A DNA stretch of 64,000 bases, taken from the sequence record PZ338878.1. One strand, 5' to 3'. Positions 5,829 through 37,150 of this stretch are shown here, piece after piece. The stretch's first letter is position 1. The number at the start of each line of letters is the position of its first letter. The notes beneath the pieces are model-generated. The model had not been told where the DNA came from and searched no databases. It saw only the letters and a program-made list of their open reading frames with translations. The position numbers and the translations under genes were made by a program. This stretch comes from a phage.

Positions 5829-6294
5829 TTTAACTACAATCAAGGTGTCTGATCTACCTGTAACAACATCTGTTTCAGACACAGATTATTTTGTAACAGA
5901 TCAATCAGGCATCACTAAGAAAACATCATTACGTGTTCTTCTTGCGGGTGCTGGTGTTACACGAAATCGTCTTTCTGCAAGGGGTACTGTTACAAATACC
6001 CTAGCTTTAGATATTAGCACGGCAGAGTATTTCTCTGCCACTTTATCTAGTCCAACTTGCAGTATTTCATTTAGTAATGTTCCAGTTACAACTAACATTG
6101 TTCAAAACTTTACTCTATCCCTACGTCAAGGCAGTGGAGCAAATAAAGTAACGTGGCCTCAATCTGTTAAATGGAGTTTTGGTCGCGCTCCTGTTTTGAG
6201 TTATAAACAGGGAGCTACAGATATTTTTGAATTTGTTAGTTATGATAATGGAGCTACCTGGATAGGTAGTTTAGTGATGGCAGGAGTGATTTAA
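5821..6294 (+). CDS. fibre-like structural protein
   Basis: N-terminus (SDLPVTTSVSDTDYFVTDQSGITKKTSL) shares the motif seen at the N-terminus of the 11347 tailspike (TNLPETSKVNGSDYLVLDQPDKTVKSTVSNFL). Confidence 0.45.
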   Translation: MADLTTIKVSDLPVTTSVSDTDYFVTDQSGITKKTSLRVLLAGAGVTRNRLSARGTVTNTLALDISTAEYFSATLSSPTCSISFSNVPVTTNIVQNFTLSLRQGSGANKVTWPQSVKWSFGRAPVLSYKQGATDIFEFVSYDNGATWIGSLVMAGVI

Positions 6295-9170
6295 TGTCAA
6301 GAATTAAGCACAGAATTGACAATGTTTTTCAACTGATCGATGGACATATTCAGTTCTTAGATCGTAATACAGGTTTAACTGTAGATCCTACAGTGCAACA
6401 CTATGTATTAAACCCACAAAACGTTCTAGCTAATAACAGACACTTTATAAACTGGACTGCTCAAGAAGGGCAACCAAACGGGGATGCTACAACAGAAGGT
6501 CAATCCGTGCTTGTTCTTGGTTGCGCTTATGCATACCTAGCTTCCGGCGATACAAAGTATTTAGACTCTGCTAAAAAATATTGGCAAGCCTATATAGATT
6601 ACTTCTTTGGTGGTCAACCTATCCCAGATCCGCCAGCAAAATATCGCCCTAACTGGATTATTAACGGTAAAGAACCACGTCTTGCACACTATCCTCTTAC
6701 AGATGATGGCTACCCTACACACGGAGGTTTTAAGGGTAGCTTAATGACGTGGACTAACGGTAGAACAGTTATTCCTCATGGTGCTCCACATTGGGGAGAA
6801 TACCTTGATAAAGCATGGTTTGCTTTTAATGGTAATCTAGGATGGAACTCTGTAAACGCTACAGTATATGCTGTTAATGCAGATGGAACAACAGATTGGT
6901 CTAAGAATGGAGATCAGTGGGACGTTGATTGGATCATTGATCGTCTAGGACGTAAAGTTGATTGGGATGGAAATATCTTAGAAGAAGGTTTTCCAACATC
7001 TCAATACGGAACAGTTCAACTAAAAAATACTTCTGTCAACGGTACATATAAATTTAACTACGCGACTTGTAACCCTGTTGAACACGGCGGTTATTTAATG
7101 GAGCGTAACACTATGTGGCATAACAGACCAGTTAACGTTCCGGTAGAAATGGGCTTTCAGGATAATGCGTCAGATGCCGAAACTTGGTGGTGTGATGCTA
7201 ATTACCTGATGTACCAAATTACAGGAGAAAGAAAATATTGGCTATGCTGGCAGTCTTCACTGTTAGTGTGTCAAGATTACTCAAACATTGATATGTTTGA
7301 TAAATTCTTCCGTAAATCTACATATGCAACTATTCCGTTTACAGATGGCATCTCTTACGATTATTCGTATCCATCTACAGCAATACCTAAATATTCAAGA
7401 GATACTTTAGGTTATATTGTTATTAGACAAGATGTTGCTGCTCAAACAACATTAGAACAGCAAGCCATTTGGTTTAAAGTTGATCAGAACTCTAAGTTAC
7501 GAGTTCAGTTCCAAGGTGTAGATGACGTAGGACATGGTATCCTTTTCCGTCCAGAATTGGAGCTAAGTAAGACCAAAGATGAAAATAACACAGTAACTTA
7601 CCGTTGTGGTTTACCACTAGGTACAGCTAATATGACAAGCATGGATATTCCATTATCCAGCTTTATGAGAAGTACCCCTCCGAATGGTGGAACATATATT
7701 ATCGCAGACCCGCGAATTATTGTTGACTGGGGTGACAATACTGTGGTACAATATAAGTATGTAACAGGTATTGCTGGAACTAATAATGACCAGATTGTTA
7801 CTGCATCAATGGATACGGATGGTGGTATCACTGTTGGTTTTTGGTTAACTCCTACATCAAAAGCTAATGTTAAGTCTATCACATATAGAACATATGAAGA
7901 TGACTTTAACATGACTATCACGGATGCTCAAGGTTGGAGATGGTGGGCTATGCTGCCTAAAACGCAAGGGGCATGGAGTACGAAGACTTTATCAGCCTCT
8001 GCTTTTAAGTTAAGTGCTTATCAGCCTAATCATCCAGAAACAGATCCTAAACCTTCAGCAATAAATCTTACTGCGGTAGATCAGGTAAATTTAGTTCTGG
8101 ATACGGCTCCTGTCAATGGTTTAACAGGAACAATAGATTTCTATTGTATTAACGATGTACCTGAAAGATATTCATCATCTTCTGGTGATGATTATACCAT
8201 GTACTTCCGTATCACTGTACAGGCTTCAAGTTCTCATACTGCTAAGTTAGGTGATTGTACTATTATTGACTATAAGTTAAATAGTCTTAATTACACACCA
8301 GGAATAATTCCATTCTCTAATATCAGTGACCCAAACACTGCATTATACGATGGATGGCGTGGTATTCCATACCCAGGATACCAGTATCCTTCCTTATACT
8401 GTTTCGCAGGTAGGGATATTGATTGGACACGTTTAAACAACAGTATTGATTTCTTGTATGATGCTCAAATGTGGTTTTATAACACGTTTGATCCTGTGAT
8501 GCCTGGGCCTATGGCACAAGCATATGTGTGGGATCGTTGGGATGCAAGAAAATACGGTGAACCGAATACGTTCACAATGAAACACTGGAATGAAAAAGCG
8601 TGGGATGGTTATGAAGCTCGTGCATTCTACTGTGCTTGTCATGCTGTATACGAACTTGTACAAAGAGGAGAAACACCTCCTGAAAAACTGGTAACAGTTT
8701 GTAAAAATTGGATCAACTACCTTAAATGGTTCCAAGACAATAATGATGGAAGAACACCAACTATCTTTAACCCAGATGGTACAGTTCTTGCACCTATAGA
8801 TGACTTTACTAGTCATATGTCTGCACTGTTTATGGCTGGTTGTTCAATCATGGGTTTGGCAGGTTATGATTCACAAATTCCAAACATTGGTATTGTAGCA
8901 GACAGATGTTTTGATCTGATTCAGCAAAACTATATTGTGCTTTCCCCTAACCATCCGATGAATGGTTGTTGGAGTGTTGCACCGCGTCCAGATTCAGATA
9001 ACGGAATGTTCTTTGGTTTCCATGCTGGAGAACTACTACGTGGTTTTGGTTTATATGCTTTATATCGTAAACTAAATCCTCAAAACGCCTTACCAATTTT
9101 GGACAATAGTAACATACCGACACTAACTGTTCTAACTATGAATGATATTAGTGTTGATGTAACCAAATAA
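6294..9170 (+). CDS. large virion structural protein, possibly enzymatic
   Basis: 958 aa ORF in the baseplate/fibre region; TAATG coupling to upstream gene; Trp/Tyr-rich carbohydrate-binding-like composition. Confidence 0.45.
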   Translation: MSRIKHRIDNVFQLIDGHIQFLDRNTGLTVDPTVQHYVLNPQNVLANNRHFINWTAQEGQPNGDATTEGQSVLVLGCAYAYLASGDTKYLDSAKKYWQAYIDYFFGGQPIPDPPAKYRPNWIINGKEPRLAHYPLTDDGYPTHGGFKGSLMTWTNGRTVIPHGAPHWGEYLDKAWFAFNGNLGWNSVNATVYAVNADGTTDWSKNGDQWDVDWIIDRLGRKVDWDGNILEEGFPTSQYGTVQLKNTSVNGTYKFNYATCNPVEHGGYLMERNTMWHNRPVNVPVEMGFQDNASDAETWWCDANYLMYQITGERKYWLCWQSSLLVCQDYSNIDMFDKFFRKSTYATIPFTDGISYDYSYPSTAIPKYSRDTLGYIVIRQDVAAQTTLEQQAIWFKVDQNSKLRVQFQGVDDVGHGILFRPELELSKTKDENNTVTYRCGLPLGTANMTSMDIPLSSFMRSTPPNGGTYIIADPRIIVDWGDNTVVQYKYVTGIAGTNNDQIVTASMDTDGGITVGFWLTPTSKANVKSITYRTYEDDFNMTITDAQGWRWWAMLPKTQGAWSTKTLSASAFKLSAYQPNHPETDPKPSAINLTAVDQVNLVLDTAPVNGLTGTIDFYCINDVPERYSSSSGDDYTMYFRITVQASSSHTAKLGDCTIIDYKLNSLNYTPGIIPFSNISDPNTALYDGWRGIPYPGYQYPSLYCFAGRDIDWTRLNNSIDFLYDAQMWFYNTFDPVMPGPMAQAYVWDRWDARKYGEPNTFTMKHWNEKAWDGYEARAFYCACHAVYELVQRGETPPEKLVTVCKNWINYLKWFQDNNDGRTPTIFNPDGTVLAPIDDFTSHMSALFMAGCSIMGLAGYDSQIPNIGIVADRCFDLIQQNYIVLSPNHPMNGCWSVAPRPDSDNGMFFGFHAGELLRGFGLYALYRKLNPQNALPILDNSNIPTLTVLTMNDISVDVTK

Positions 9171-26706: not shown

Positions 26707-27654
26707 TTAGAAACAGTGCAGGAAGTTTCGACCATATTGCAAACCAATAGGAGCAAACGGGATATCATCATCGAAATCTTGAACAACAGGTTCTGGTTCT
26801 TTCGGTGCTGGCTCTTTCTTCTCTACTTTTTTAGTTTCTTTCTTAACTTCTTGTACTGGGGTAGACATTCCACGGATAGCAGCAGCTACTTTATCAGACA
26901 AAGCAAGAACTTCACGAGCAGCTTCAATAATCTCTTCTGCCGTTACAGTTTTACCTGTATGATCACGACAAGCGTTAAGAATTGCGTGTCCAACTGAAGC
27001 ACCAAGATCATAGTCAGTTACATCAACGCCACGATCTTTAGCAATTTCAGCTTTCAGAGTAACAGTTGCAGATTGTACCACACCAGCCAAGTCGAAAGCA
27101 TCACCTTTCACACCAGCACGTAGAAGCTCCAGAGCGCCGTTTACAGCGTGTCCTGTTTCAATCCCTACGGTATCACGTTTTTTGTAGTTAGGCTTGTTAC
27201 CGTCATTATTAGATGGCTTATTTCCACCTTTTGAAGAGGATTGCGCTTGCTGAACACCTTCTGTTGAAAGAATAGTGATTTTACCTTTAGAGGAGTTGTA
27301 GTATGTTTTGCCATTCCATTCGGAAGGTTTAACATCCATAGTTAGTTCTACGCCTTTTTCGATAGTAACCCACTTATCACCATCTTTAACTTGCAGGTTT
27401 TCATGTTCTGGGTGCAGTTTAACTTCACCTAGGCTAACCCAAACACCTTTATCATCAGCACCAGCACCTTTCTCTTTAATAAGCAGAGATGCTTTGTGAG
27501 TTGATTCAATTTTCTTATCTGGCTGACCTGCAACCTTAATATAAGAGACTTTCATTTCATCAAACTTATCTAGTTTGACATATTCGACAATACCTTCAGC
27601 CCAGAATGCTTCTTTTTTAGTACGGCGGTCGATTTCAGAATTAATTACTGGCAT
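26707..27654 (-). CDS. ssb: single-stranded DNA-binding protein
   Basis: Gly/Ser/Asn-rich linker and C-terminal acidic tail ending DDDIPF, the canonical SSB C-terminus. Confidence 0.75.
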   Translation of the reverse strand: MPVINSEIDRRTKKEAFWAEGIVEYVKLDKFDEMKVSYIKVAGQPDKKIESTHKASLLIKEKGAGADDKGVWVSLGEVKLHPEHENLQVKDGDKWVTIEKGVELTMDVKPSEWNGKTYYNSSKGKITILSTEGVQQAQSSSKGGNKPSNNDGNKPNYKKRDTVGIETGHAVNGALELLRAGVKGDAFDLAGVVQSATVTLKAEIAKDRGVDVTDYDLGASVGHAILNACRDHTGKTVTAEEIIEAAREVLALSDKVAAAIRGMSTPVQEVKKETKKVEKKEPAPKEPEPVVQDFDDDIPFAPIGLQYGRNFLHCF

Positions 27655-27670
27655 AAATTCTCCTCTATAA

Positions 27671-28069
27671 TTACATTACTTTAACACAAAACTCTCGTAA
27701 AAGAGTAGCGTCAGTTTCTTCCAACAGGTATTTACCAAGACCAATACCAAATCCTATTTCACCACTTTCAAAATGGAGAATTTGTATCTTTTCTCCACCA
27801 AGGTTAATTACTTTTGCTTTTCCAGGATTGTCCAAAACATCTCGTATTGTGTCCTGTAGTAGCATTAGTTCACGTTTTGTAATAGTGGTTTCAGATATCT
27901 CTTTGTCTTCTACCCGCACTGTTAAACGGTTGTATCCACCAAAGAGACATAGTATTTGAATAAAAAAGGTATTATCTTGAGGTTCAACATCTTTTTTAGT
28001 TAGTTCAAGACGATTAGTTTCTCTACTATAGAACGTCTCGACTAAGATTTTAGAACGATTGTCTGTCAT
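27671..28069 (-). CDS. hypothetical protein
   Basis: 132 aa ORF in the replication operon. Confidence 0.45.
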   Translation of the reverse strand: MTDNRSKILVETFYSRETNRLELTKKDVEPQDNTFFIQILCLFGGYNRLTVRVEDKEISETTITKRELMLLQDTIRDVLDNPGKAKVINLGGEKIQILHFESGEIGFGIGLGKYLLEETDATLLREFCVKVM

Positions 28070-28112
28070 TCAAGTCCTCATAATAACACATAATTGTAAG
28101 GTTTGTCAACAC

Positions 28113-28706
28113 TTAAATCTTAAATTCTTCGTTGTTAAACGAATCTAGTGTACGTACTTCTGGTTTTTTGGGAATGAAAACGTCTTTTACAAAGCGGAAC
28201 ATAGGGAAACGTTCTGCCATTTTACGGACGTGTGCTTCTTTACCTGTGTATCGGTGATTAATAGTGCAAATATTAGTTTTCAATGCAAAGTCAAAATCTG
28301 GATGATATACATAATTTTGACCATCCCAGTAACACAGGCAAATAGCTACGTCAAAATTCCATACGATTTCACTGCGTACACCCTCTTCCATGATCATAAA
28401 GTTAAACTTAAGATCTTTATAGTATGCTTCAAATACCCATTTCAAATGTGGTAGTTCGGCATAAGTGTGTTCTGTTTGCTTAGTAAGTTGTTTAACATTA
28501 CGTGCACCAACACCCAACATCAAAAATTTCTCTACCAGTACGGTTGTATTGTGGTTAGGCATACGCAAGTAAATGTCAATATCTTGCGCAGGTGTTTCTA
28601 ATCGCCAGTCGCGTACAGCGCCGCCAGCTACAATTGCAAACGGATCTACCAGTTGGCACATACGTAATACTTCTAAAGCGCGTACTTTTTGATCTTCAAT
28701 ATTCAT
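28113..28706 (-). CDS. Pol-beta-superfamily nucleotidyltransferase (CCA-adding/poly(A) polymerase head-domain-like)
   Basis: IVAGGAVRDWRL...AQDIDIYL matches the GG(A/S)VRD ... DxD signature of class II CCA-adding enzymes; only 197 aa. Confidence 0.5.
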   Translation of the reverse strand: MNIEDQKVRALEVLRMCQLVDPFAIVAGGAVRDWRLETPAQDIDIYLRMPNHNTTVLVEKFLMLGVGARNVKQLTKQTEHTYAELPHLKWVFEAYYKDLKFNFMIMEEGVRSEIVWNFDVAICLCYWDGQNYVYHPDFDFALKTNICTINHRYTGKEAHVRKMAERFPMFRFVKDVFIPKKPEVRTLDSFNNEEFKI

Positions 28707-28843
28707 ATTTTCTCCTATCTCTTATGGTCTTTGCGTTATTCTAGATGTTCAAACATCTAATTATGAAATGGTTTAAAAGTGCGGAACAACCTTGGCAATA
28801 ATAGATTGTCCCACATAAAAACTCCTTTAAAATCAAACAGATA

Positions 28844-31423
28844 CTAGTGACAACTGGCCCATGAGTTACCAACATCGTAACCAGCAGTGAGAGGTACATT
28901 AAGATTGTAATACTCACCAGCTTTATTAACAGCGATAGATGCTAATTCTCCAGCACGACTGTAGGCTGTAAACCAACCACCTTTCGGAGATTCATGTACG
29001 TTAGCCCAAATCTTGCCAGTACGTTTCTCTTCTTCTTCTTTCCAGGCGTTAACTTTATCCAAACATTCTTTATCAATTTTCTTTTGTTCTTCTGGATCAT
29101 CAACTTGAGTCCAACCTAAAGATTCTTTAGAGAACCATTTAAAATGCACTAGATCACGAGTTACTTCAAGCTGTGCTTCATCGTGATATGCAATCATTTG
29201 TTGAACGAATGACTTATTTTTCCAGTCATCAACAAAAAAGTCAACAGCTAATCCTTCTTCTTCGATAAGATCATCGTAGATAACCATTGCTCTTTTTGCA
29301 CAAATAACACCACCACTCTGGAACAGAGAGTTAAGTATTGCGTGTGCAGATCGTGTAGGTACTTTCCTACCATCAATACCAAGAATGTATTTCTTACCTG
29401 TTTTAACCCAAAAATCATGCAGACGTTCTTTAAGAAGCGCAAGAGGCTTTGCAGCTTCCCAGAAAGCATCGTATACAAGCTGTCCTGTATACATATCACT
29501 ACCAATAGTTTTTGCTACTTTTGCAGCTTGAGCACCATAGGTAATACCATATTTAACAGATTTAGCAGGGCTTCGTTCAAACTTACGACCAATAGTATCA
29601 GAAATACGTCGAGCCATCATTGTATGAACATCATTAGGTTTTTCCAACAATAGAGCGTTACAATATTCGTGTGGCTCCTGCTCGTACCGCCAACAGTAGT
29701 GTGATTCTATTTTTGCTTCAAGAGAATCGAAGTCATAACCAATCTGGAAGTATTTTGGAACTTCTACACCAAATAAGTTACGCATTTCATATCCGTACAG
29801 AGATGTTACACGTGGAATGTTTGCTACTAATCTATGTTTCATACGAGACGTAGCTGCATCACACGTTGCAGCAGGAGTTGGTATACGACCATCAGCCCTT
29901 ACTGCCGCCAGATAACCTTTATCGTAATCCTCTTCATCTTCTTCCCAATCAGCACCACCACCTAGAATAGAGTTTCTACGATGTTTATACGTAAGATACT
30001 GCACAATCTGCGTAGCATAAGGAAACTTTTCACCCAGTGCTTCCAAGTTAGGACAAATATCTTTCTCTTGCCCTTTTGTAAAGGAAGGGTTAGTAAGCAC
30101 TTTAACACCACGACCTTTAGCTTTAGCAATACGATCTCTTAGTTTCCATTCCAAAGTTTCTGGTGTGCACTCCAGATGATCACATCTATCCTGGCAGAAG
30201 TTAGATGCTAATGTTTGATCAACATAGTCACGAATAGCCTTCTCCATTTGTGCTTCATCTTTCTTAATCTTAGTGCCAGATTTAAGAGTGATATCTTTAT
30301 CTTTATATTCAGATGGACTCCAACCTAAACCAACTAACCAATTTTTAATATGTGTAGTGTCGTCTAAAGTAGCAGGTACTGTAGGATCACAAATAGGTTC
30401 TTCTGCTGGAATAGGTAGTTTAAACTCTTTACCTAATGCAAATAACCACCAACCATCTTCTTTTTGTACAAGTTCACCAGAATGTTTCTCTGCAAACTTT
30501 AGCATGTTACTTGAAGGTTCACCATTCTTTTTAAACTGTAGTTTAGGTGGAATGAATGATTTCAAATAACCTTTAGTAGCAGGTTTAGGAGGTAGCACAG
30601 GTTCTGCCTCTAAACGACATGCTTCCATTCGAGCATCCAGATCACGAATATTATCCTCTGCTTGTTTCATATTGAAAGCAAAGCCACGGTGCTCTTGACG
30701 TGTAATAATATCAGCTACACGTTGTTCTAAGTTAAATGGTTCAGACCACTTATTATAATCACCCCACTCTTCCATCAAATAACGGAACACTGCGGTGTTA
30801 GCTTTGTTATCGTAAATACAGTAATACAGCATATCTGCTGCAAATGTTCTAAATCTTTCAGTTTCAGGGATGTTTTTTCTAAAATCAATTTTAACATCCC
30901 CTCCAGCTTTCTTAGATAACTCTGCCAGACTATGACCACCGAAGCGATCAGGGTTTAGTGTCTTACTTAAGATCATAGTATCACAAATTTCAATGTTACT
31001 ATTACCCCAAGTATTGTACTTAATACTGTAGTTGAGTTTAAAAAATAATTTAATTGCCAGTAAGTCGAAGTTAATGATGTTGTGTCCAACTACTTTGGTA
31101 ATTTTATAGTTTGAATTACCTTTAAATTTACCTGTTCCATTTACAAAATCAGGAAAATCTTTAAGAGGGAAATGGGTATATTCTAAATGCTCATATTCCT
31201 CCAGTCGGTATTCATACTTTCCGTCAGTCTCAATATACGGACGACCATCGAAAAGATATTTATCACCATCATGGAAAGCAATAATCTCTCCAGTATCATG
31301 ACTTTCACACACAATACAGTGCATTGCAAAACTATCTTTTAAACGATATGGACTTGCCAAGTAATCTACACTTTCGTCATTAAGCAAGTTGTTACTTTCA
31401 ATGTCGAAAGTAAAAGCTCCCAT
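28844..31423 (-). CDS. DNA polymerase, family A, with 3'-5' exonuclease domain
   Basis: Exo I motif FDIESNN near N-terminus; motif B-like RSPAKSVKYGITYGAQAAK; motif C MIAYHDEAQ; AAGGAGGGAG RBS. Confidence 0.85.
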   Translation of the reverse strand: MGAFTFDIESNNLLNDESVDYLASPYRLKDSFAMHCIVCESHDTGEIIAFHDGDKYLFDGRPYIETDGKYEYRLEEYEHLEYTHFPLKDFPDFVNGTGKFKGNSNYKITKVVGHNIINFDLLAIKLFFKLNYSIKYNTWGNSNIEICDTMILSKTLNPDRFGGHSLAELSKKAGGDVKIDFRKNIPETERFRTFAADMLYYCIYDNKANTAVFRYLMEEWGDYNKWSEPFNLEQRVADIITRQEHRGFAFNMKQAEDNIRDLDARMEACRLEAEPVLPPKPATKGYLKSFIPPKLQFKKNGEPSSNMLKFAEKHSGELVQKEDGWWLFALGKEFKLPIPAEEPICDPTVPATLDDTTHIKNWLVGLGWSPSEYKDKDITLKSGTKIKKDEAQMEKAIRDYVDQTLASNFCQDRCDHLECTPETLEWKLRDRIAKAKGRGVKVLTNPSFTKGQEKDICPNLEALGEKFPYATQIVQYLTYKHRRNSILGGGADWEEDEEDYDKGYLAAVRADGRIPTPAATCDAATSRMKHRLVANIPRVTSLYGYEMRNLFGVEVPKYFQIGYDFDSLEAKIESHYCWRYEQEPHEYCNALLLEKPNDVHTMMARRISDTIGRKFERSPAKSVKYGITYGAQAAKVAKTIGSDMYTGQLVYDAFWEAAKPLALLKERLHDFWVKTGKKYILGIDGRKVPTRSAHAILNSLFQSGGVICAKRAMVIYDDLIEEEGLAVDFFVDDWKNKSFVQQMIAYHDEAQLEVTRDLVHFKWFSKESLGWTQVDDPEEQKKIDKECLDKVNAWKEEEEKRTGKIWANVHESPKGGWFTAYSRAGELASIAVNKAGEYYNLNVPLTAGYDVGNSWASCH

Positions 31424-31513: not shown

Positions 31514-31909
31514 TTATTTATTGTCAGCACTTAATTGTACTTTAATAAGGCAATTAGGGACACCATTGGTATTTCTCAAACCTACACGGTCAATTTTAAC
31601 TGTCCCTGTTAAGCCACTAAAAGTGGAAACAATGTTATTAATGTTTTCATCCTTACTAGCGATATCAAGAACAACTTTATCACTAACATTTTTCAACATA
31701 CGATCTACAAGCTCTCCCACAAAACCACTGGTAGTTTGAATGAGAAGGTATAGGCAACCATCCTCAAACCACAAATGTTCGCCATAAGCATAACCGTATG
31801 GTTCTAACTCCGATCCATCTTGAAATTTAAACTTGGCAATAGTTTTCGTATAATCATACCCTAACGCAGAAGGGGATACCCCATAGAGGATATTTTCGTT
31901 GTCTTTCAT
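31514..31909 (-). CDS. hypothetical protein
   Basis: ORF-track 31514-32038; start reassigned to ATG at 31909 (MKDNEN...) preceded by AAGGAG, removing overlap with the primase-helicase gene. Confidence 0.5.
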   Translation of the reverse strand: MKDNENILYGVSPSALGYDYTKTIAKFKFQDGSELEPYGYAYGEHLWFEDGCLYLLIQTTSGFVGELVDRMLKNVSDKVVLDIASKDENINNIVSTFSGLTGTVKIDRVGLRNTNGVPNCLIKVQLSADNK

Positions 31910-31919
31910 ATTTTTCTCC

Positions 31920-33692
31920 TTAATAAGAACCATCAGGAATATTCTCTGGGTTACTTGTGTATTGATCGTAATCGTGAAGTGTCGCTGTTTTAATCTCATA
32001 GAAGAAACTACCTGCTGCACCAGTCTCTGAGAACTCACGGTTCTTTAGAATGTAGCAATATGTGCGGTTACGTTCCATAGGATCTTCAGCTTGTTTATCA
32101 CGCTCCAGCGCAATTGTGATACCAGCACCTTTAGCAAGGAAGCTACTACCCATTGCATCATCTTCTACAATATGTTCATTACTATTGTTAGAAGACTTTT
32201 TAACGTGTGAAATTACAACAATGGTAATTGCGTACTCTTTCATAATGCGTTTGAGCCACGTCGCAAGTTCCTCTTGTTGTGACACGTCCATACCAGAAAG
32301 CAAGTCAGAATAAGGGTCGATAACAAGAATGGTTACTCCGAAATAAATAATCATTTCCAGAACCTTCTCTTTAATCACATCTACGTTAGCTCCACGATCA
32401 TCACAAACATAGAAACGTGGTGTTCCATCTTCTCGTTCGTAAAAATCACGAATCTTTTCTTCATTATCTTTTAAAATCTTTTCCTTCTCTTCTTTTGTTT
32501 TACGGTGAAGAGGGATGTGCAAGAATGAAGACAGTAAGTTACGAGAATACTTCTTATACGTTGCCTCCAAAGATAAAATACCAAGAGTATGTTCTGGGTG
32601 TGCAAGAATAATGTGCTTTGTAATCTCGTTAACCAACAGTGTTTTACCGATACTTGTTTTTGCAAGTATAACAGTAATTTCTTCTTCTACCAAGCCTCCA
32701 CCTAACATATTAGAAGCAACACGCATGAATGGAGGAAGGGTGATCATTTTAGCTTCCAGGCATTCCAAGGCTGCTTCATACAGTACGTTAGAAGCATAAA
32801 CACCAGCAGGTGTGTACAGTTTAGCTTTGAAAAAGCGATCAAGAAAGTGATCAATTTTTCCTTCTACTAGTGCCTGGTTAGGATCTTTAACATCCGTTAG
32901 TTCCATCACGTAAACTTTATTACGTGGTAAGATTTTAACACATTTCTCAACTGCTGCACGTCCAGCTTCATCATTATCCATACACAGAACAATCTTTTTA
33001 AATTGATCTAAGAATTTATAACGATGTTGAAGCTGCTTATGCAGAGATGTTTCGCCACAAGTACCAGATACTACAGCAGGAACAGGGTATTTACCGCCCT
33101 TGTTATAGTCTTTTAGCATCTGTGTTGCAGCCAGCATATCGTGTTCACCACCAACGATTAGAATAGTACCGCTGTGGTTACGATATTTAAACTCACCAAA
33201 AAGATCACAATCCTTTCCTGTTTCACCAATAGGATGCGAAAAATCTTTTGGATCGATACGTTGTTTATACCCAGCAATATTGTAATCTTTAGTTGTAGGG
33301 TATAATGTTGAAATTACTTCGCCAGTAGCTTCATCGTACATATAGCGTACACCGAAAGGTTTAGAGATATCTTCACGAATACCGCGATAACCTTTTGGAT
33401 TAGTTCCAGTGCTGGCTTTTAGTTTATCATGTACTTCTGGATTAAACTCACTACCCAAGATATCCTCCTCTTCAATTTCTTCGCCGTGTGCATTTAACCA
33501 TTTTTGATCAGGGATAGTAAAGCCACAAGAAAAACAATGTGCGCCTCGATGGTCTTCATCGGCATCTAAGCCATATACCATCAAATTGTTTTGTGATCGA
33601 TCACGCCCTCCTTTCATACAACGAGGACACCCAGTATGTCCTTCTTGACTTAGATCAATGTTATACCCATATTTATTTACAACATAAGACAC
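31920..33692 (-). CDS. bifunctional DNA primase/helicase (T7 gp4-like)
   Basis: N-terminal zinc ribbon (CPRCMKGG...HCFSCGF), TOPRIM-like region (ILIVGGEHDMLAATQ), DnaB-family Walker A (AKTSIGKT) and Walker B (VLVIDPYS). Confidence 0.8.
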   Translation of the reverse strand: MSYVVNKYGYNIDLSQEGHTGCPRCMKGGRDRSQNNLMVYGLDADEDHRGAHCFSCGFTIPDQKWLNAHGEEIEEEDILGSEFNPEVHDKLKASTGTNPKGYRGIREDISKPFGVRYMYDEATGEVISTLYPTTKDYNIAGYKQRIDPKDFSHPIGETGKDCDLFGEFKYRNHSGTILIVGGEHDMLAATQMLKDYNKGGKYPVPAVVSGTCGETSLHKQLQHRYKFLDQFKKIVLCMDNDEAGRAAVEKCVKILPRNKVYVMELTDVKDPNQALVEGKIDHFLDRFFKAKLYTPAGVYASNVLYEAALECLEAKMITLPPFMRVASNMLGGGLVEEEITVILAKTSIGKTLLVNEITKHIILAHPEHTLGILSLEATYKKYSRNLLSSFLHIPLHRKTKEEKEKILKDNEEKIRDFYEREDGTPRFYVCDDRGANVDVIKEKVLEMIIYFGVTILVIDPYSDLLSGMDVSQQEELATWLKRIMKEYAITIVVISHVKKSSNNSNEHIVEDDAMGSSFLAKGAGITIALERDKQAEDPMERNRTYCYILKNREFSETGAAGSFFYEIKTATLHDYDQYTSNPENIPDGSY

Positions 33693-33704: not shown

Positions 33705-33974
33705 CTAAAATGATTCGTTTGTCTCCATAATATATTGCATTTCCAAATCTTCCATATGTTTCTTAAATTGGTAAACAATTTCCGATGGGGAAATATCTAT
33801 ATCAAAAAGTTCTTTTGTACCAGAATAGAACCTAATACCATCAACAATAAGGCCACCATAATAATCCCAATCACTTTCTCGTGAGAAAGGATTAGGTTCT
33901 TCATAATAGTAATCTACTTCAACAATAATAGGTTCTTTATTATCTTGTTTATACTCAAAATCAAAAGTGTTCAT
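33705..33974 (-). CDS. hypothetical protein
   Basis: 89 aa acidic, Tyr-rich ORF; stop-start overlap with neighbour. Confidence 0.4.
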   Translation of the reverse strand: MNTFDFEYKQDNKEPIIVEVDYYYEEPNPFSRESDWDYYGGLIVDGIRFYSGTKELFDIDISPSEIVYQFKKHMEDLEMQYIMETNESF

Positions 33975-34918
33975 TATAAATCCTCGATAAGCAGTCTGCG
34001 GGTTTCATTTAAATCATCAATATTGTAGTTATCTCTTACATACTTAGCAAGAGCCAATCCTTTCTCAATACAAACATCAGGAGATTCGATTAAGTATTCT
34101 ACAATATCTTTCCACTCTTTAACTGAATCAGCAAAGAAGATTAGATCTTTAAATTCTTCAGTATAGTAGTTCTCTCGTGGAGAACAAACGAGTGGCAAAC
34201 CTTTAGCACCAGCCTCAAGAATTTTTAAATTACTTTTGGCATTATTAAAATGATTATTTACTAACGGAGCTATGGAGATTTGATGACCATCGTATGCTTC
34301 CATATAACACTCATAAGGACGAATACCTTCATAAACACAATCTGGTTGAATATCTTCTTTAATTTGCAACCATTGAGCACTACTTAACTCTTCGTGATCT
34401 CTACGAAATCCACATAAAGTTAAATCTTTACCAAAAGTAGGAAGAATTGCTAAATCATGTTTATGGGTTTCACTTCCAGCCCAAACCAGTGGGCTTTTAG
34501 AATAACGATCTTTAGTAAGAACAAACTGTCCTTCATCAAAAGGTAGTCCGTTAGGCACAATATGTACATTATCATTGTATTGGCTTAATTCAACCTTTAA
34601 TGCTGGAGTTGTTGTAGTTACAAGATCGCTTCTTTCAAGGAACCATTTTAGGTCATCTCGGATTTGATTTTCAAATAATCCTTCCAGCATATGCCCTTCA
34701 GGAATAATTAAAGAATCATCCAAATCCATTACCAATTTAAACCCAAGCTGTTTAAGAGCCAGGAAACCTGGCTTTCCACGAGTTGGTACTCCATTGAATA
34801 CAAAAATATTATGCTTAGGATTAATAGTCAGTTTGCGTTTATATGGCAAAATGATTCTATGAAAGTCACATACACTATACCTTTCATGTCCACGTGTGTC
34901 AAGAATAATATTAGGCAT
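33974..34918 (-). CDS. putative glycosyltransferase (GT-B-like), paralog A
   Basis: Clear paralogy with the next ORF (LPFDEGQFVLTKDRYS...; SNLKILEAGAKGLPLVCSP); C-terminal E..K..E-like block resembles GT1-type nucleotide-sugar-binding region. Confidence 0.45.
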   Translation of the reverse strand: MPNIILDTRGHERYSVCDFHRIILPYKRKLTINPKHNIFVFNGVPTRGKPGFLALKQLGFKLVMDLDDSLIIPEGHMLEGLFENQIRDDLKWFLERSDLVTTTTPALKVELSQYNDNVHIVPNGLPFDEGQFVLTKDRYSKSPLVWAGSETHKHDLAILPTFGKDLTLCGFRRDHEELSSAQWLQIKEDIQPDCVYEGIRPYECYMEAYDGHQISIAPLVNNHFNNAKSNLKILEAGAKGLPLVCSPRENYYTEEFKDLIFFADSVKEWKDIVEYLIESPDVCIEKGLALAKYVRDNYNIDDLNETRRLLIEDL

Positions 34919-34929
34919 ATGGCTCCTTG

Positions 34930-35904
34930 TTAAAGACTTTCAATAACTTGACGACGCAGTTCATTGGCATCTGCAAGATTATAATTAAGACGAACGTGCT
35001 CTGCAAGCATCATACCACGATCTTCTGTGTATCTAGGGTTCCTCATTAGCTTGACAACTTCATAATGCCAAGATGCTTTAGAGTCTGCATAAATAACAGC
35101 CTTTGCATCTACCGGATTGAAGTACGGCAGCACAGGAGAACAGATAATAGGAAGACCCTTTGCACCTGCTTCCAAAATCTTCAAATTGCTTTTACAGTTG
35201 TTGAAGTCATTATCTACCAGAGGAGCAATTGCAATACTGTGACCGTCATACACAGACATATACTCACCTAAATTTTTAATAGCTGGTTTATACTGTGCAT
35301 TTGGAATTTTACGTTTTACTTTAACCCACTCCGCAGTAGTTAGATACTGACTATTATTTCCAACAGGTGCAGAAGGATACACTTCATACCCTGCAATTGT
35401 CAATAGTGTATCATCAAATGTATTAGCTACAAGAGATAAATCAGGTTCATGGCTTGCTCCTCCAGCCCAAATAATAGGCGTGTCAGAATAACGGTCTTTT
35501 GTCAAAGTAAATTGACCTTCATCGTAAGGTAGTGCGTTTCTAATAACGACAACATTACGATTTAAATGACGAATTTTGTAAGCCAGATATTCTGTTGTTA
35601 CAGTAACAACATCTGCTAACTTAATCATCTCTACAATAGTCTTTGAGTGATTAGTAAACACGCCAGCCATATAATGTTCAGGATTAAGTGAATAAAAGTC
35701 ATCTAAATCAACAATAATCTTAACACCTTGTGCCTTCAGGCGTTTAACTTCGTCTGATCCACGAGAATACACTCTATTAAAAACTAAAACGTCTTTCTTA
35801 GGCTTAAACGTATTTCCCGCAAATGGCATTACAATACGATGGTAATCACAACCACTGCCTAACTTATTATCACACTTAAGTACAGGAGTATTAGGATTTA
35901 CCAT
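34930..35904 (-). CDS. putative glycosyltransferase (GT-B-like), paralog B
   Basis: ORF-track 34930-35943; start probably at internal Met (MVNPNTPVL), aligning with paralog A; LPYDEGQFTLTKDRYS and SNLKILEAGAKGLPIICSP. Confidence 0.45.
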   Translation of the reverse strand: MVNPNTPVLKCDNKLGSGCDYHRIVMPFAGNTFKPKKDVLVFNRVYSRGSDEVKRLKAQGVKIIVDLDDFYSLNPEHYMAGVFTNHSKTIVEMIKLADVVTVTTEYLAYKIRHLNRNVVVIRNALPYDEGQFTLTKDRYSDTPIIWAGGASHEPDLSLVANTFDDTLLTIAGYEVYPSAPVGNNSQYLTTAEWVKVKRKIPNAQYKPAIKNLGEYMSVYDGHSIAIAPLVDNDFNNCKSNLKILEAGAKGLPIICSPVLPYFNPVDAKAVIYADSKASWHYEVVKLMRNPRYTEDRGMMLAEHVRLNYNLADANELRRQVIESL

Positions 35905-36577
35905 ATTTTTGAGCCTCCTCATAAGAGATAAAAGTTTTACCATTGCGAAGATCCTCCAGTGATTGTTTATATTGTTCCCAGTTTACACCAATCCCCTGTT
36001 CTTTCTCTTCTTTTGACAGATTCGCAAAAGGTAAAGGGTTGTCTCCAAACACATCATCAGGATGGATAAACGCCATAATTCGAATAGGACATGGTACGCC
36101 CTGAATACCTCGGTTCAAACCTGCCAGTGGAACGCGCTGAATCCACTCTGCATCTTCATATCCATAACCGTGGGTGTATGAGCGGAAATAGCCAGCTTTC
36201 TCAATAACTGCACGGGAATACATACCAAACTGGCACATACCTAGTTCCCAAATAACCACTTCACCTTCAATACCTTTTACTTTATCTTTAAAGTATTCAG
36301 GCATACCAAAGAAATCCCAGCCATTTTCCTTAGCCTGTTTTACAAAATATGTTTCCCAACCTGGCACAACCGGATAGCAATCATCATCAAAAATAAACCA
36401 GTAATCATACCCTTCATCATAAAACTTTTTCATCAGTTCATTACGGGCATATGCAACACCTTTTCGTTCCCGATCATACTGTACAACAAAAGTAGCATTA
36501 GGATCAGTCACAAGATAATCTTTAAGAGGACGCTTACCTACAGTAATAACACCAACACCAATTTTTGTATTTTCCAA
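35891..36577 (-). CDS. putative glycosyltransferase (GT-A-like, DxD motif)
   Basis: YWFIFDDDCYPV motif after an N-terminal Rossmann-like stretch. Confidence 0.45.
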   Translation of the reverse strand: MENTKIGVGVITVGKRPLKDYLVTDPNATFVVQYDRERKGVAYARNELMKKFYDEGYDYWFIFDDDCYPVVPGWETYFVKQAKENGWDFFGMPEYFKDKVKGIEGEVVIWELGMCQFGMYSRAVIEKAGYFRSYTHGYGYEDAEWIQRVPLAGLNRGIQGVPCPIRIMAFIHPDDVFGDNPLPFANLSKEEKEQGIGVNWEQYKQSLEDLRNGKTFISYEEAQKYGKS

Positions 36578-36586
36578 AATAACTCC

Positions 36587-37150
36587 TTAAATAATTTTAT
36601 TCATGTCTTGACAATGTAAAAGGTGTGAAACAGCTTTTCTAGGATCATCGTTACCTAAACGGTATGTGTGAAATAAATATAACCCACGTAGTAAACCTAG
36701 CCTTTTATTGTTAGCGTGTAATGCTTTAGAGAAAATTATATCAAACTGTATTGATCTTTCCTCAAAAGGGATTTCATTCCACAGACTCTTACGAAAGAGA
36801 AGAAAGAATCCTGCTAAGATAGCATCTGTAGGTACTTCCTCTATTGAGTTTCCCCATTCTAGATGTGCTCTTTTTGCAATCTCAATGTGGTGTAATATAT
36901 TTGGATCTTCACTTCTTTCATTATTAAATAATTGATATGTTGATCCCAATCTATTACAAGATGCACCAAGAACATCAAAATCAGGATTTGAACGGACTAT
37001 TGATTCCAACCAAGCAGGTTGTTCTGGAAGAAGAAACATTGTATCAATGTCTCTTAGGCAAATCCAACTATCTTCTGGTAAGACACTTATTGTGTCATTG
37101 ATACCTTTTCCAATATCTCCAGAAAGATAGGGAGTTATGTGAAATATCAT
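36587..37150 (-). CDS. hypothetical protein, possibly glycosyltransferase-like
   Basis: 187 aa; LRDIDTMFL acidic motif; adjacent to glycosyltransferase genes. Confidence 0.3.
   Translation of the reverse strand: MIFHITPYLSGDIGKGINDTISVLPEDSWICLRDIDTMFLLPEQPAWLESIVRSNPDFDVLGASCNRLGSTYQLFNNERSEDPNILHHIEIAKRAHLEWGNSIEEVPTDAILAGFFLLFRKSLWNEIPFEERSIQFDIIFSKALHANNKRLGLLRGLYLFHTYRLGNDDPRKAVSHLLHCQDMNKII

Follow-up and report, generated by a model that had tools for sequence, protein, structure and literature searches.

A small stand-alone nucleotidyltransferase with a class II catalytic core, encoded next to the DNA polymerase gene of a phi92-like Escherichia phage

The window, i.e. the whole stretch of 64,000 nucleotides of phage DNA that was analysed (sequence record PZ338878.1), carries on its minus strand an open reading frame (ORF) for a 197-aa nucleotidyltransferase (NTase), which runs from an ATG at 28706-28704 to a TAA at 28115-28113 according to the ORF list and the translation. 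The first-pass annotation of this DNA had placed an ORF at 28113-28706 without naming its strand, and the ORF is indeed present. The DNA of the region is 97.6-98.6% identical to that of phi92-like Escherichia myoviruses (Justusliebigvirus, Stephanstirmvirinae), and by this sequence identity the window is assigned to a phi92-like Escherichia myovirus. The NTase protein shares 98% identity with the protein annotated 'nucleotidyltransferase' in Justusliebigvirus phages; its ortholog, phi92 gene 158, carries the RefSeq product name 'nucleotidyltransferase' and is annotated with the same ribosome-binding-site motif, and some GenBank records name homologs 'putative tRNA nucleotidyl transferase/poly(A) polymerase'. 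In the order of transcription, and all on the minus strand, the locus comprises a primase/helicase gene, a small ORF, a family A DNA polymerase gene, the NTase gene, a gene for a 132-aa protein, an SSB-like gene and a methyltransferase gene, with the following features:

31920-33692, minus strand: DNA primase/helicase gene, further upstream of the NTase gene (phrog_239, E = 1.8e-166; neighbour cluster 1)
28844-31423, minus strand: family A (T7-like) DNA polymerase gene, directly upstream of the NTase gene (phi92 gp159, 'DNA polymerase I'; neighbour cluster 2, which matches Pfam DNA_pol_A)
28712-28716, minus strand: Shine-Dalgarno sequence AGGAG of the NTase gene, read off the sequence, 5 nt upstream of the ATG
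28113-28706, minus strand: coding sequence of the NTase (ortholog of phi92 gp158; phrog_1614 / PF26128; stand-alone, 197 aa)
28080-28109, minus strand: candidate sigma-70-like promoter (TTGACA-18-TATTAT with an extended -10 TG, 11 of 12 matches; consensus match only)
27671-28069, minus strand: 132-aa gene, phi92 gp157-like, downstream of the NTase gene (phrog_16560, function unknown)
26707-27654, minus strand: SSB-like gene, phi92 gp156-like, downstream (DFDDDIPF motif; named 'single-stranded DNA-binding protein' in phage BME3)

A sequence scan found no terminator-like site in the gap between the polymerase and NTase genes, and co-transcription of the two is probable. The candidate sigma-70-like promoter was the best in a scan of 8.8 kb and begins 4 nt past the NTase stop codon; as a predicted element, it marks the NTase gene as the final gene ahead of a site where transcription of the downstream genes might start anew. 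Just 10 nt separate the end of the -10 element of this promoter from the ATG of the next gene (28069), so that an mRNA begun there would have almost no leader and would be without the GAGGA Shine-Dalgarno sequence. The 132-aa gene (neighbour cluster 5) and the SSB-like gene (neighbour cluster 6) were each found in 10 of 80 related loci, and accompany the NTase gene only in phi92/rV5-like lineages. DFDDDIPF is the C-terminal tip of the SSB of E. coli, which recruits host proteins; in the SSB-like protein of the window the motif is followed by 15 further residues, and the protein of one relative (L010) terminates exactly at DDDIPF.

The family A DNA polymerase has 859 aa in the window and 1104 aa in phi92 and PD06 (loci L001, 9845-13159, and L002), and the extra length is an in-frame insertion of ~735 bp, probably an intein or homing element; the stretch between polymerase and NTase genes of some relatives also holds HNH endonuclease genes. 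A 174-aa ORF with a GTG start is listed at 31514-32038 (minus strand), overlapping the end of the primase/helicase gene; its match to phrog_22634 spans only residues 44-174, so that the true start probably lies downstream, which would leave ~131 aa as in phi92 gp160. The primase/helicase gene is closely preceded, on its upstream side, by four successive genes (33974-37150, minus strand), all of them glycosyltransferase genes according to the annotation of phi92.

The NTase matches the phrog_1614 family model ('nucleotidyltransferase') over its full length (E = 3.5e-34, residues 7-193) and phrog_10174 with E = 3e-26, and PF26128 is a precomputed tag on its own cluster and on most of the database homologs listed. 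The first-pass annotation had proposed a profile search against the PolyA_pol and NTP_transf_2 families, which gave a match below threshold for the former and none for the latter: the PolyA_pol head (PF01743) matched residues 26-89 only, with E = 8.4e-4 and a score of 20.1 bits that stays below the gathering score of 23, and NTP_transf_2 gave no match. Sixteen of 101 family members match PolyA_pol at E <= 0.01, and a search of NCBIfam with the NTase returned nothing meaningful.

A HMMER search of 1.84 billion representative proteins (E <= 1e-3) yielded 481 clusters at 50% identity, nearly all of 170-230 aa and matching residues ~1-175 of the query, and a profile search of a 5.8-billion-protein collection yielded 484 proteins at E <= 1e-5. 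The window NTase is likewise a single-domain, phage-encoded protein within this size range, and the near-uniform lengths indicate a stand-alone small protein rather than a fragment of a CCA-adding enzyme. Among the 120 database matches listed, PF26128 is the sole Pfam tag, the source names read 'hypothetical protein', and no fusion to a known Pfam domain was seen; the longer homologs (261-400 aa) add only small N-terminal domains of unknown function (phrog_17589; weakly phrog_14592). One lineage with genomes of ~85-93 kb carries the NTase fused to one or two copies of the N-terminal phrog_17589 domain (proteins P0059, P0101 and P0077; loci L026, L040 and L041). The homolog in Vibrio phage ICP1 (ORF223; L044, an ICP1-like contig, 6001-6369) has only 137 aa and ends after the S-x-C strand, so that the region of the conserved K162 is missing; in many ICP1 records the annotation shows two ORFs here, and the gene may be split or decaying. 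The median pI of the family is neutral (6.6).

The family is virtually phage-only, with next to no cellular representation: across 185,579 species representatives a scan gave 11 loci, all on contigs of metagenome-assembled genomes and several of these of phage-genome size. Of some 50,700 isolate genomes, 196 records belong to the branch of the window protein and 265, mostly Autographiviridae of 40-46 kb, to a second branch, roughly 460 together. The second branch is that of the CHARACTERISED relative, Gp22 of the Klebsiella podovirus fHe-Kpn01 (182 aa), which was reported to be toxic on expression in E. coli and whose authors pointed out that it resembles CCA-adding enzymes (PMC7291057). Gp22 and the 'putative tRNA nucleotidyltransferases' of Autographiviridae, from podophages of Klebsiella, Pectobacterium, Vibrio, Aeromonas and Yersinia, resemble the window NTase in their membership of phrog_1614 (E = 1.3e-39 for Gp22), in their size (~180-200 aa) and in their position directly after a family A polymerase gene; the gp22 gene overlaps the stop codon of the polymerase gene, in the same order, polymerase then NTase, as in the window. 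Alignment by hhalign of Gp22 with the family of the window protein gave 86% probability over 105 columns that cover the head and the F-x-x-S/N-I/L-C/N strand, at an identity of only about 18%, and neither protein retrieves the other branch by tblastn. The toxicity is known for Gp22 alone, not for the window NTase.

The gene and its family are thus already annotated (RefSeq, PHROG and Pfam PF26128), and the first observation on this locus, though correct, is a rediscovery. A literature search found no biochemical characterisation or assay of the family, of PF26128, or in follow-up of Gp22.

Conserved residues were examined in an alignment of 101 diverse homologs with about 21-46% identity to the query. 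G28, G29, D42 and D44 are invariant, and conservation reaches at least 90% at Q6, A10, A27, A30, R32, D33, W34, Y82 and K162; the column of Q102 holds 84% Q and 15% N, and a well conserved C-terminal set comprises F118, S/A121, C123, W/Y126, F138, Y153, H159 and F167-P168. As judged from this alignment, the family is under purifying selection on the two-aspartate metal site and the GGxxRD turn. The elements of the protein are located as follows:

28608-28625, minus strand: first half of motif A, G28-G29-A-V-R32-D33, the helix-turn before the catalytic strand; aligned with GGAVRD in CCA enzymes and with GGGVRD in PAP I
28569-28583, minus strand: second half of motif A, D42-I-D44-I-Y46, with two metal-binding aspartates on strand beta2 (predicted 43-48); aligned with the DxD found in CCA enzymes and PAP
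28428-28430, minus strand: E93, candidate third carboxylate, on strand beta4 (predicted 88-96); the column holds 59% E, 11% D and 14% N
28182-28355, minus strand: family-specific C-terminal alpha/beta subdomain, residues ~118-175, from column conservation and predicted secondary structure

The GGAVRD (residues 28-33) and DIDIY (residues 42-46) signatures, on which the first-pass annotation had based its assignment, are therefore present in the translation, and the protein has motif A in the expected form, i.e. GGxVRD followed by DxD. E93 may serve as a third metal ligand. Searched against the PDB, the family profile matched CCA-adding enzymes over helix 1 and motif A (E = 5.5e-4 to a psychrophilic CCA-adding enzyme), and hhalign aligned the family to E. 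coli CCA over 40 columns and to PAP I over 52 columns, in both cases at motif A only; the sequence likeness to CCA-adding enzymes and PAP is hence limited to ~40-50 residues that comprise helix 1, GGxxRD and DxD.

The other motifs of these enzymes were not recovered. For motif B (RRD), no conserved Arg-Arg-Asp is present anywhere in the 101-member alignment, and the positions ahead of F118 are variable (V/I, D/E/P, N/T/S); for motif D (EDxxR), no conserved counterpart exists in the family, and K162 is the sole strongly conserved basic residue of the C-terminal part. A profile of residues 50-180 matched no PDB sequence and left motifs B-E of CCA and PAP undetectable, and hhalign with E. coli CCA and PcnB likewise found nothing beyond motif A. 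Neck, body and tail domains are absent, as had been proposed at first sight: the NTase has 197 aa and its homologs mostly 170-230 aa, against ~400-470 aa for CCA-adding enzymes and PAP I (412 aa for E. coli CCA, 465 aa for PAP I).

An AlphaFold2 model of the NTase (pLDDT 92.8) adopts the class II NTase head fold, a Pol-beta-like alpha/beta catalytic core, so that the absence of a nucleotidyltransferase fold, which would have spoken against the original assignment, is not what the prediction gives. Among predicted viral structures the model had 144 matches at E <= 1e-3, many of them 'poly(A) polymerase head domain' proteins of 167-215 aa from phages of Vibrio, Pectobacterium, Dickeya, Caulobacter, Aeromonas, Pseudomonas and Providencia; ICP1 ORF223 and proteins of 180-190 aa from Pithovirus and Orpheovirus are also among these matches. 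The phrog matches, the PolyA_pol match, the residue conservation, the PDB profile match and the class II head fold together argue that the motif is not a chance occurrence.

In comparison with class II tRNA nucleotidyltransferases and PAP I (PF01743 head), the window NTase is about half the size and lacks motifs B, C, D and E as well as body and tail; no PDB chain matches its C-terminal alpha/beta subdomain in sequence, and its family is phage-only. The NTase uses the class II catalytic scaffold, yet it does not qualify as a CCA-adding enzyme or PAP, because it has neither motif B nor motif D, no neck, body or tail, and a Pfam score below threshold. The fold also matches 2la3 (NP_344798.1 of Streptococcus pneumoniae; PF06042/DUF925), a stand-alone 'CCA-adding enzyme head domain' with 9% identity to the NTase; that family is encoded on bacterial chromosomes whereas the family of the window protein is phage-only, and no family member matched PF06042 at E <= 0.01. 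A small stand-alone Pol-beta NTase is also known in RlaP (PF10127), which is associated with RNA ligase and adds one or two NMP to damaged RNA 3' ends, and a putative RNA ligase is encoded in the lineage of the window phage as well. Membership in the RlaP family was rejected: PF10127 matched none of the 101 members, the RNA ligase gene lies ~95 kb away in the relative muut, and the conserved neighbours of the NTase gene are replication genes. MenT toxins extend tRNA 3' ends, and MenT1 is a PDB chain of 195 residues; the window NTase differs from MenT/AbiEii (DUF1814) in its family, in having no antitoxin partner, and in being encoded by a lytic phage rather than in a bacterial toxin-antitoxin locus.

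The reading that we favour, tentatively, is that of an active, stand-alone, template-independent NTase that is made together with the replication genes and probably extends RNA 3' ends by one or a few nucleotides; catalytic activity, the RNA 3'-end substrate and the biological role are what we infer for the protein. Addition to RNA 3' ends is rated likeliest because the closest structural relatives act on RNA 3' ends, and because RlaP and MenT do so without large RNA-binding domains. D42 and D44, probably with E93, would hold the catalytic metals, and the GGxxRD turn together with K162 and K/R166 would position the NTP, with the family-specific C-terminal subdomain taking the place of the neck, by which C or A is normally selected. 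An NMP would thereby be moved from the NTP onto a free 3'-OH, for one or a few nucleotides, most likely on RNA (tRNA or mRNA ends), so that the NTase may be a short-tailing or end-modifying enzyme and not a true CCA synthase. Expressed with the T7-type replication genes, it might have an accessory role in host interference or repair. The first-pass annotation had offered three options, i.e. repair of tRNA 3' ends, tagging of RNAs, and action with a partner, among which putative RNA tagging is the most plausible.

That the NTase is instead an effector of host takeover or counter-defence is doubtful, whether by nucleotidylylation (e.g. AMPylation) of a small molecule or of a host or phage protein, or by synthesis or consumption of a nucleotide signal. 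In both fold searches, families with such activities ranked clearly below the RNA enzymes of class II, and the GGxxRD helix-turn is specific to class II RNA-end enzymes. Further, neither Pfam nor PADLOC gave a match to the models for the MNT antitoxin (NTP_transf_2) or for MenT/AbiEii (DUF1814), no match was found to the PADLOC defence-system NTases or to the Pfam CD-NTase models, and no paired HEPN or antitoxin gene and no linked partner or target gene was seen across the loci.

The neighbouring genes bear on a second alternative, i.e. that the NTase is a replication accessory that acts on DNA or primer 3' ends in the T7-type replisome, through non-templated tailing, end protection or primer modification. 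Across 80 IMG/VR loci with family members, for which the neighbour genes were clustered, a gp4-type primase-helicase (cluster 1) was found in 59 loci, and family A DNA polymerase fell into two clusters (47 and nine loci); HNH homing endonucleases, a FEN-type 5'-3' exonuclease, an ATP-dependent DNA ligase, dCMP deaminase and ribonucleotide reductase (RNR) were further recurrent neighbours. After dereplication at 60% NTase identity, a polymerase or primase-helicase gene was located within 6 kb of the NTase gene in 29 of 41 lineages, and within about 1.5 kb in roughly half of the lineages; 117 of 121 of these replication genes lie on the same strand as the NTase gene. When only contigs of at least 60 kb are considered, the count is 13 of 22 lineages (binomial P about 6e-5 against a generous expectation of 20%), a value that overstates the evidence since the lineages are non-independent. 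This synteny, the FEN exonuclease, DNA ligase, dCMP deaminase and RNR among the neighbours, and the recurrence of the polymerase-then-NTase order in the unrelated podovirus fHe-Kpn01 all favour a role in the replisome, and without the RRD ribose sensor the enzyme could accept dNTPs. 'Putative tRNA nucleotidyltransferases' are present in 37 of 46 Autographiviridae of Pectobacterium versus only 60 of more than 500 others (PMC7693777), and this patchy, host-associated occurrence suggests an accessory gene, not a core replication gene. We regard action on DNA or primer ends as unlikely. As to the partner protein that the first-pass annotation had envisaged, no conserved partner gene beyond the replication genes was found across the 80 loci, which speaks against this option. 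On one 148-kb viral contig (L008, 9155-11108) the NTase gene lies among small ORFs, ~2.6 kb upstream of a cluster of 10 tRNA genes, with no replication genes beside it.

A genuine, minimal CCA-adding or CCA-repair enzyme, which would rebuild the 3' ends of host or phage tRNAs trimmed by nucleases or damaged by toxins, was the first proposal for this protein, and it draws on motif A and helix 1, i.e. the class II CCA/PAP signature, on the matching head fold, and on the label 'tRNA nucleotidyl transferase/poly(A) polymerase' of many GenBank homologs. Defences that cut tRNA 3' tails do exist, e.g. Cas12a3 (PMC12851939). No tRNA genes were found in the window; the search for tRNA and RNA-repair genes in the rest of the genome, which had been suggested as a check, was positive in near-identical relatives. 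Phage 'alia' (97.5% identical) carries 15 clustered tRNA genes in another part of its genome, and the relative muut has a cluster of phosphoesterase, putative RNA ligase and ATPase genes at 17.6-19.5 kb, together with a tRNA cluster and a HisRS-like fragment. The tRNA genes and the phosphoesterase and RNA ligase genes indicate that the lineage invests in RNA functions; in muut, the RNA ligase gene at 18.2-19.1 kb is ~95 kb apart from the NTase gene at about 116 kb. The stretches of close relatives that hold these genes (L099, i.e. muut NC_052657.1, 12026-14724 and 17619-19509; L084, 43959-46582) include genes for a nicotinamide phosphoribosyltransferase and a ribose-phosphate pyrophosphokinase as well, a pair that looks like an NAD+ reconstitution pathway.

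Several observations stand against CCA repair. All 15 tRNA genes of alia encode their 3' CCA, so that de novo CCA synthesis is unneeded, and a function of the NTase as maturation enzyme of the phage tRNAs was rejected for this reason. tRNA genes occur within 6 kb of the NTase gene in only six of 48 related viral loci, fHe-Kpn01 carries a homolog and has no tRNA genes, and a CCA enzyme is present in the host anyway. No family member has motif D, the amino-acid template that specifies C and A, or motif B, or a body and tail for tRNA binding, which makes specific and faithful CCA synthesis unlikely; further, toxicity is unexpected of a repair enzyme, yet the homolog Gp22 is toxic. Of the proposal that a CCA/PAP-type enzyme repairs tRNA ends, motif A and the head fold were thus recovered, and the remainder is opposed by the absence of motifs B and D and of body and tail, by the encoded CCA, and by replication genes as neighbours; we consider CCA repair quite improbable. 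A catalytically dead, structural or regulatory protein that keeps only the NTase fold might be suspected from the 59% conservation of E93, the missing motifs B-E and the shortened ICP1 homolog (137 aa), but is very improbable given that neither the two aspartates nor the GG turn varies, and that R32, D33 and K162 are at least 90% conserved, in homologs of only about 25-30% identity, as is typical of an active enzyme.

For addition of nucleotides to RNA 3' ends, the preferred reading, the main points in favour are the fold ranking and the motif A signature, and the main points against are the neutral pI and the replication-gene synteny. The toxicity of Gp22 in E. coli is expected for an enzyme that acts on a host macromolecule and is consistent with host interference. 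A more far-reaching version, to which we assign a low probability, is that the family represents a new type of viral effector, i.e. a stripped-down class II NTase that travels with T7-type replication modules and acts on host RNA 3' ends or on DNA or primer 3' ends of the replisome. Either form would explain the toxicity of the homolog, the phage-only distribution and the conserved position beside the DNA polymerase gene. If host RNA 3' ends were the substrate, the protein would be a viral counterpart of MenT-like tRNA poisoning or of PAP-like mRNA tailing, in the service of host shut-off or nucleotide supply; action on DNA or primer 3' ends would represent a previously unrecognised replication accessory activity.

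The discovery value of the locus itself is small, as the RefSeq label and the PHROG and Pfam entries exist and two papers have already remarked on homologs. The family is nevertheless widespread and phage-borne and has the catalytic core of CCA and poly(A) enzymes alone, which makes its biochemistry a fair target; the identity of its substrate could reveal a new mechanism of host takeover or counter-defence, or a compact template-independent polymerase reagent.
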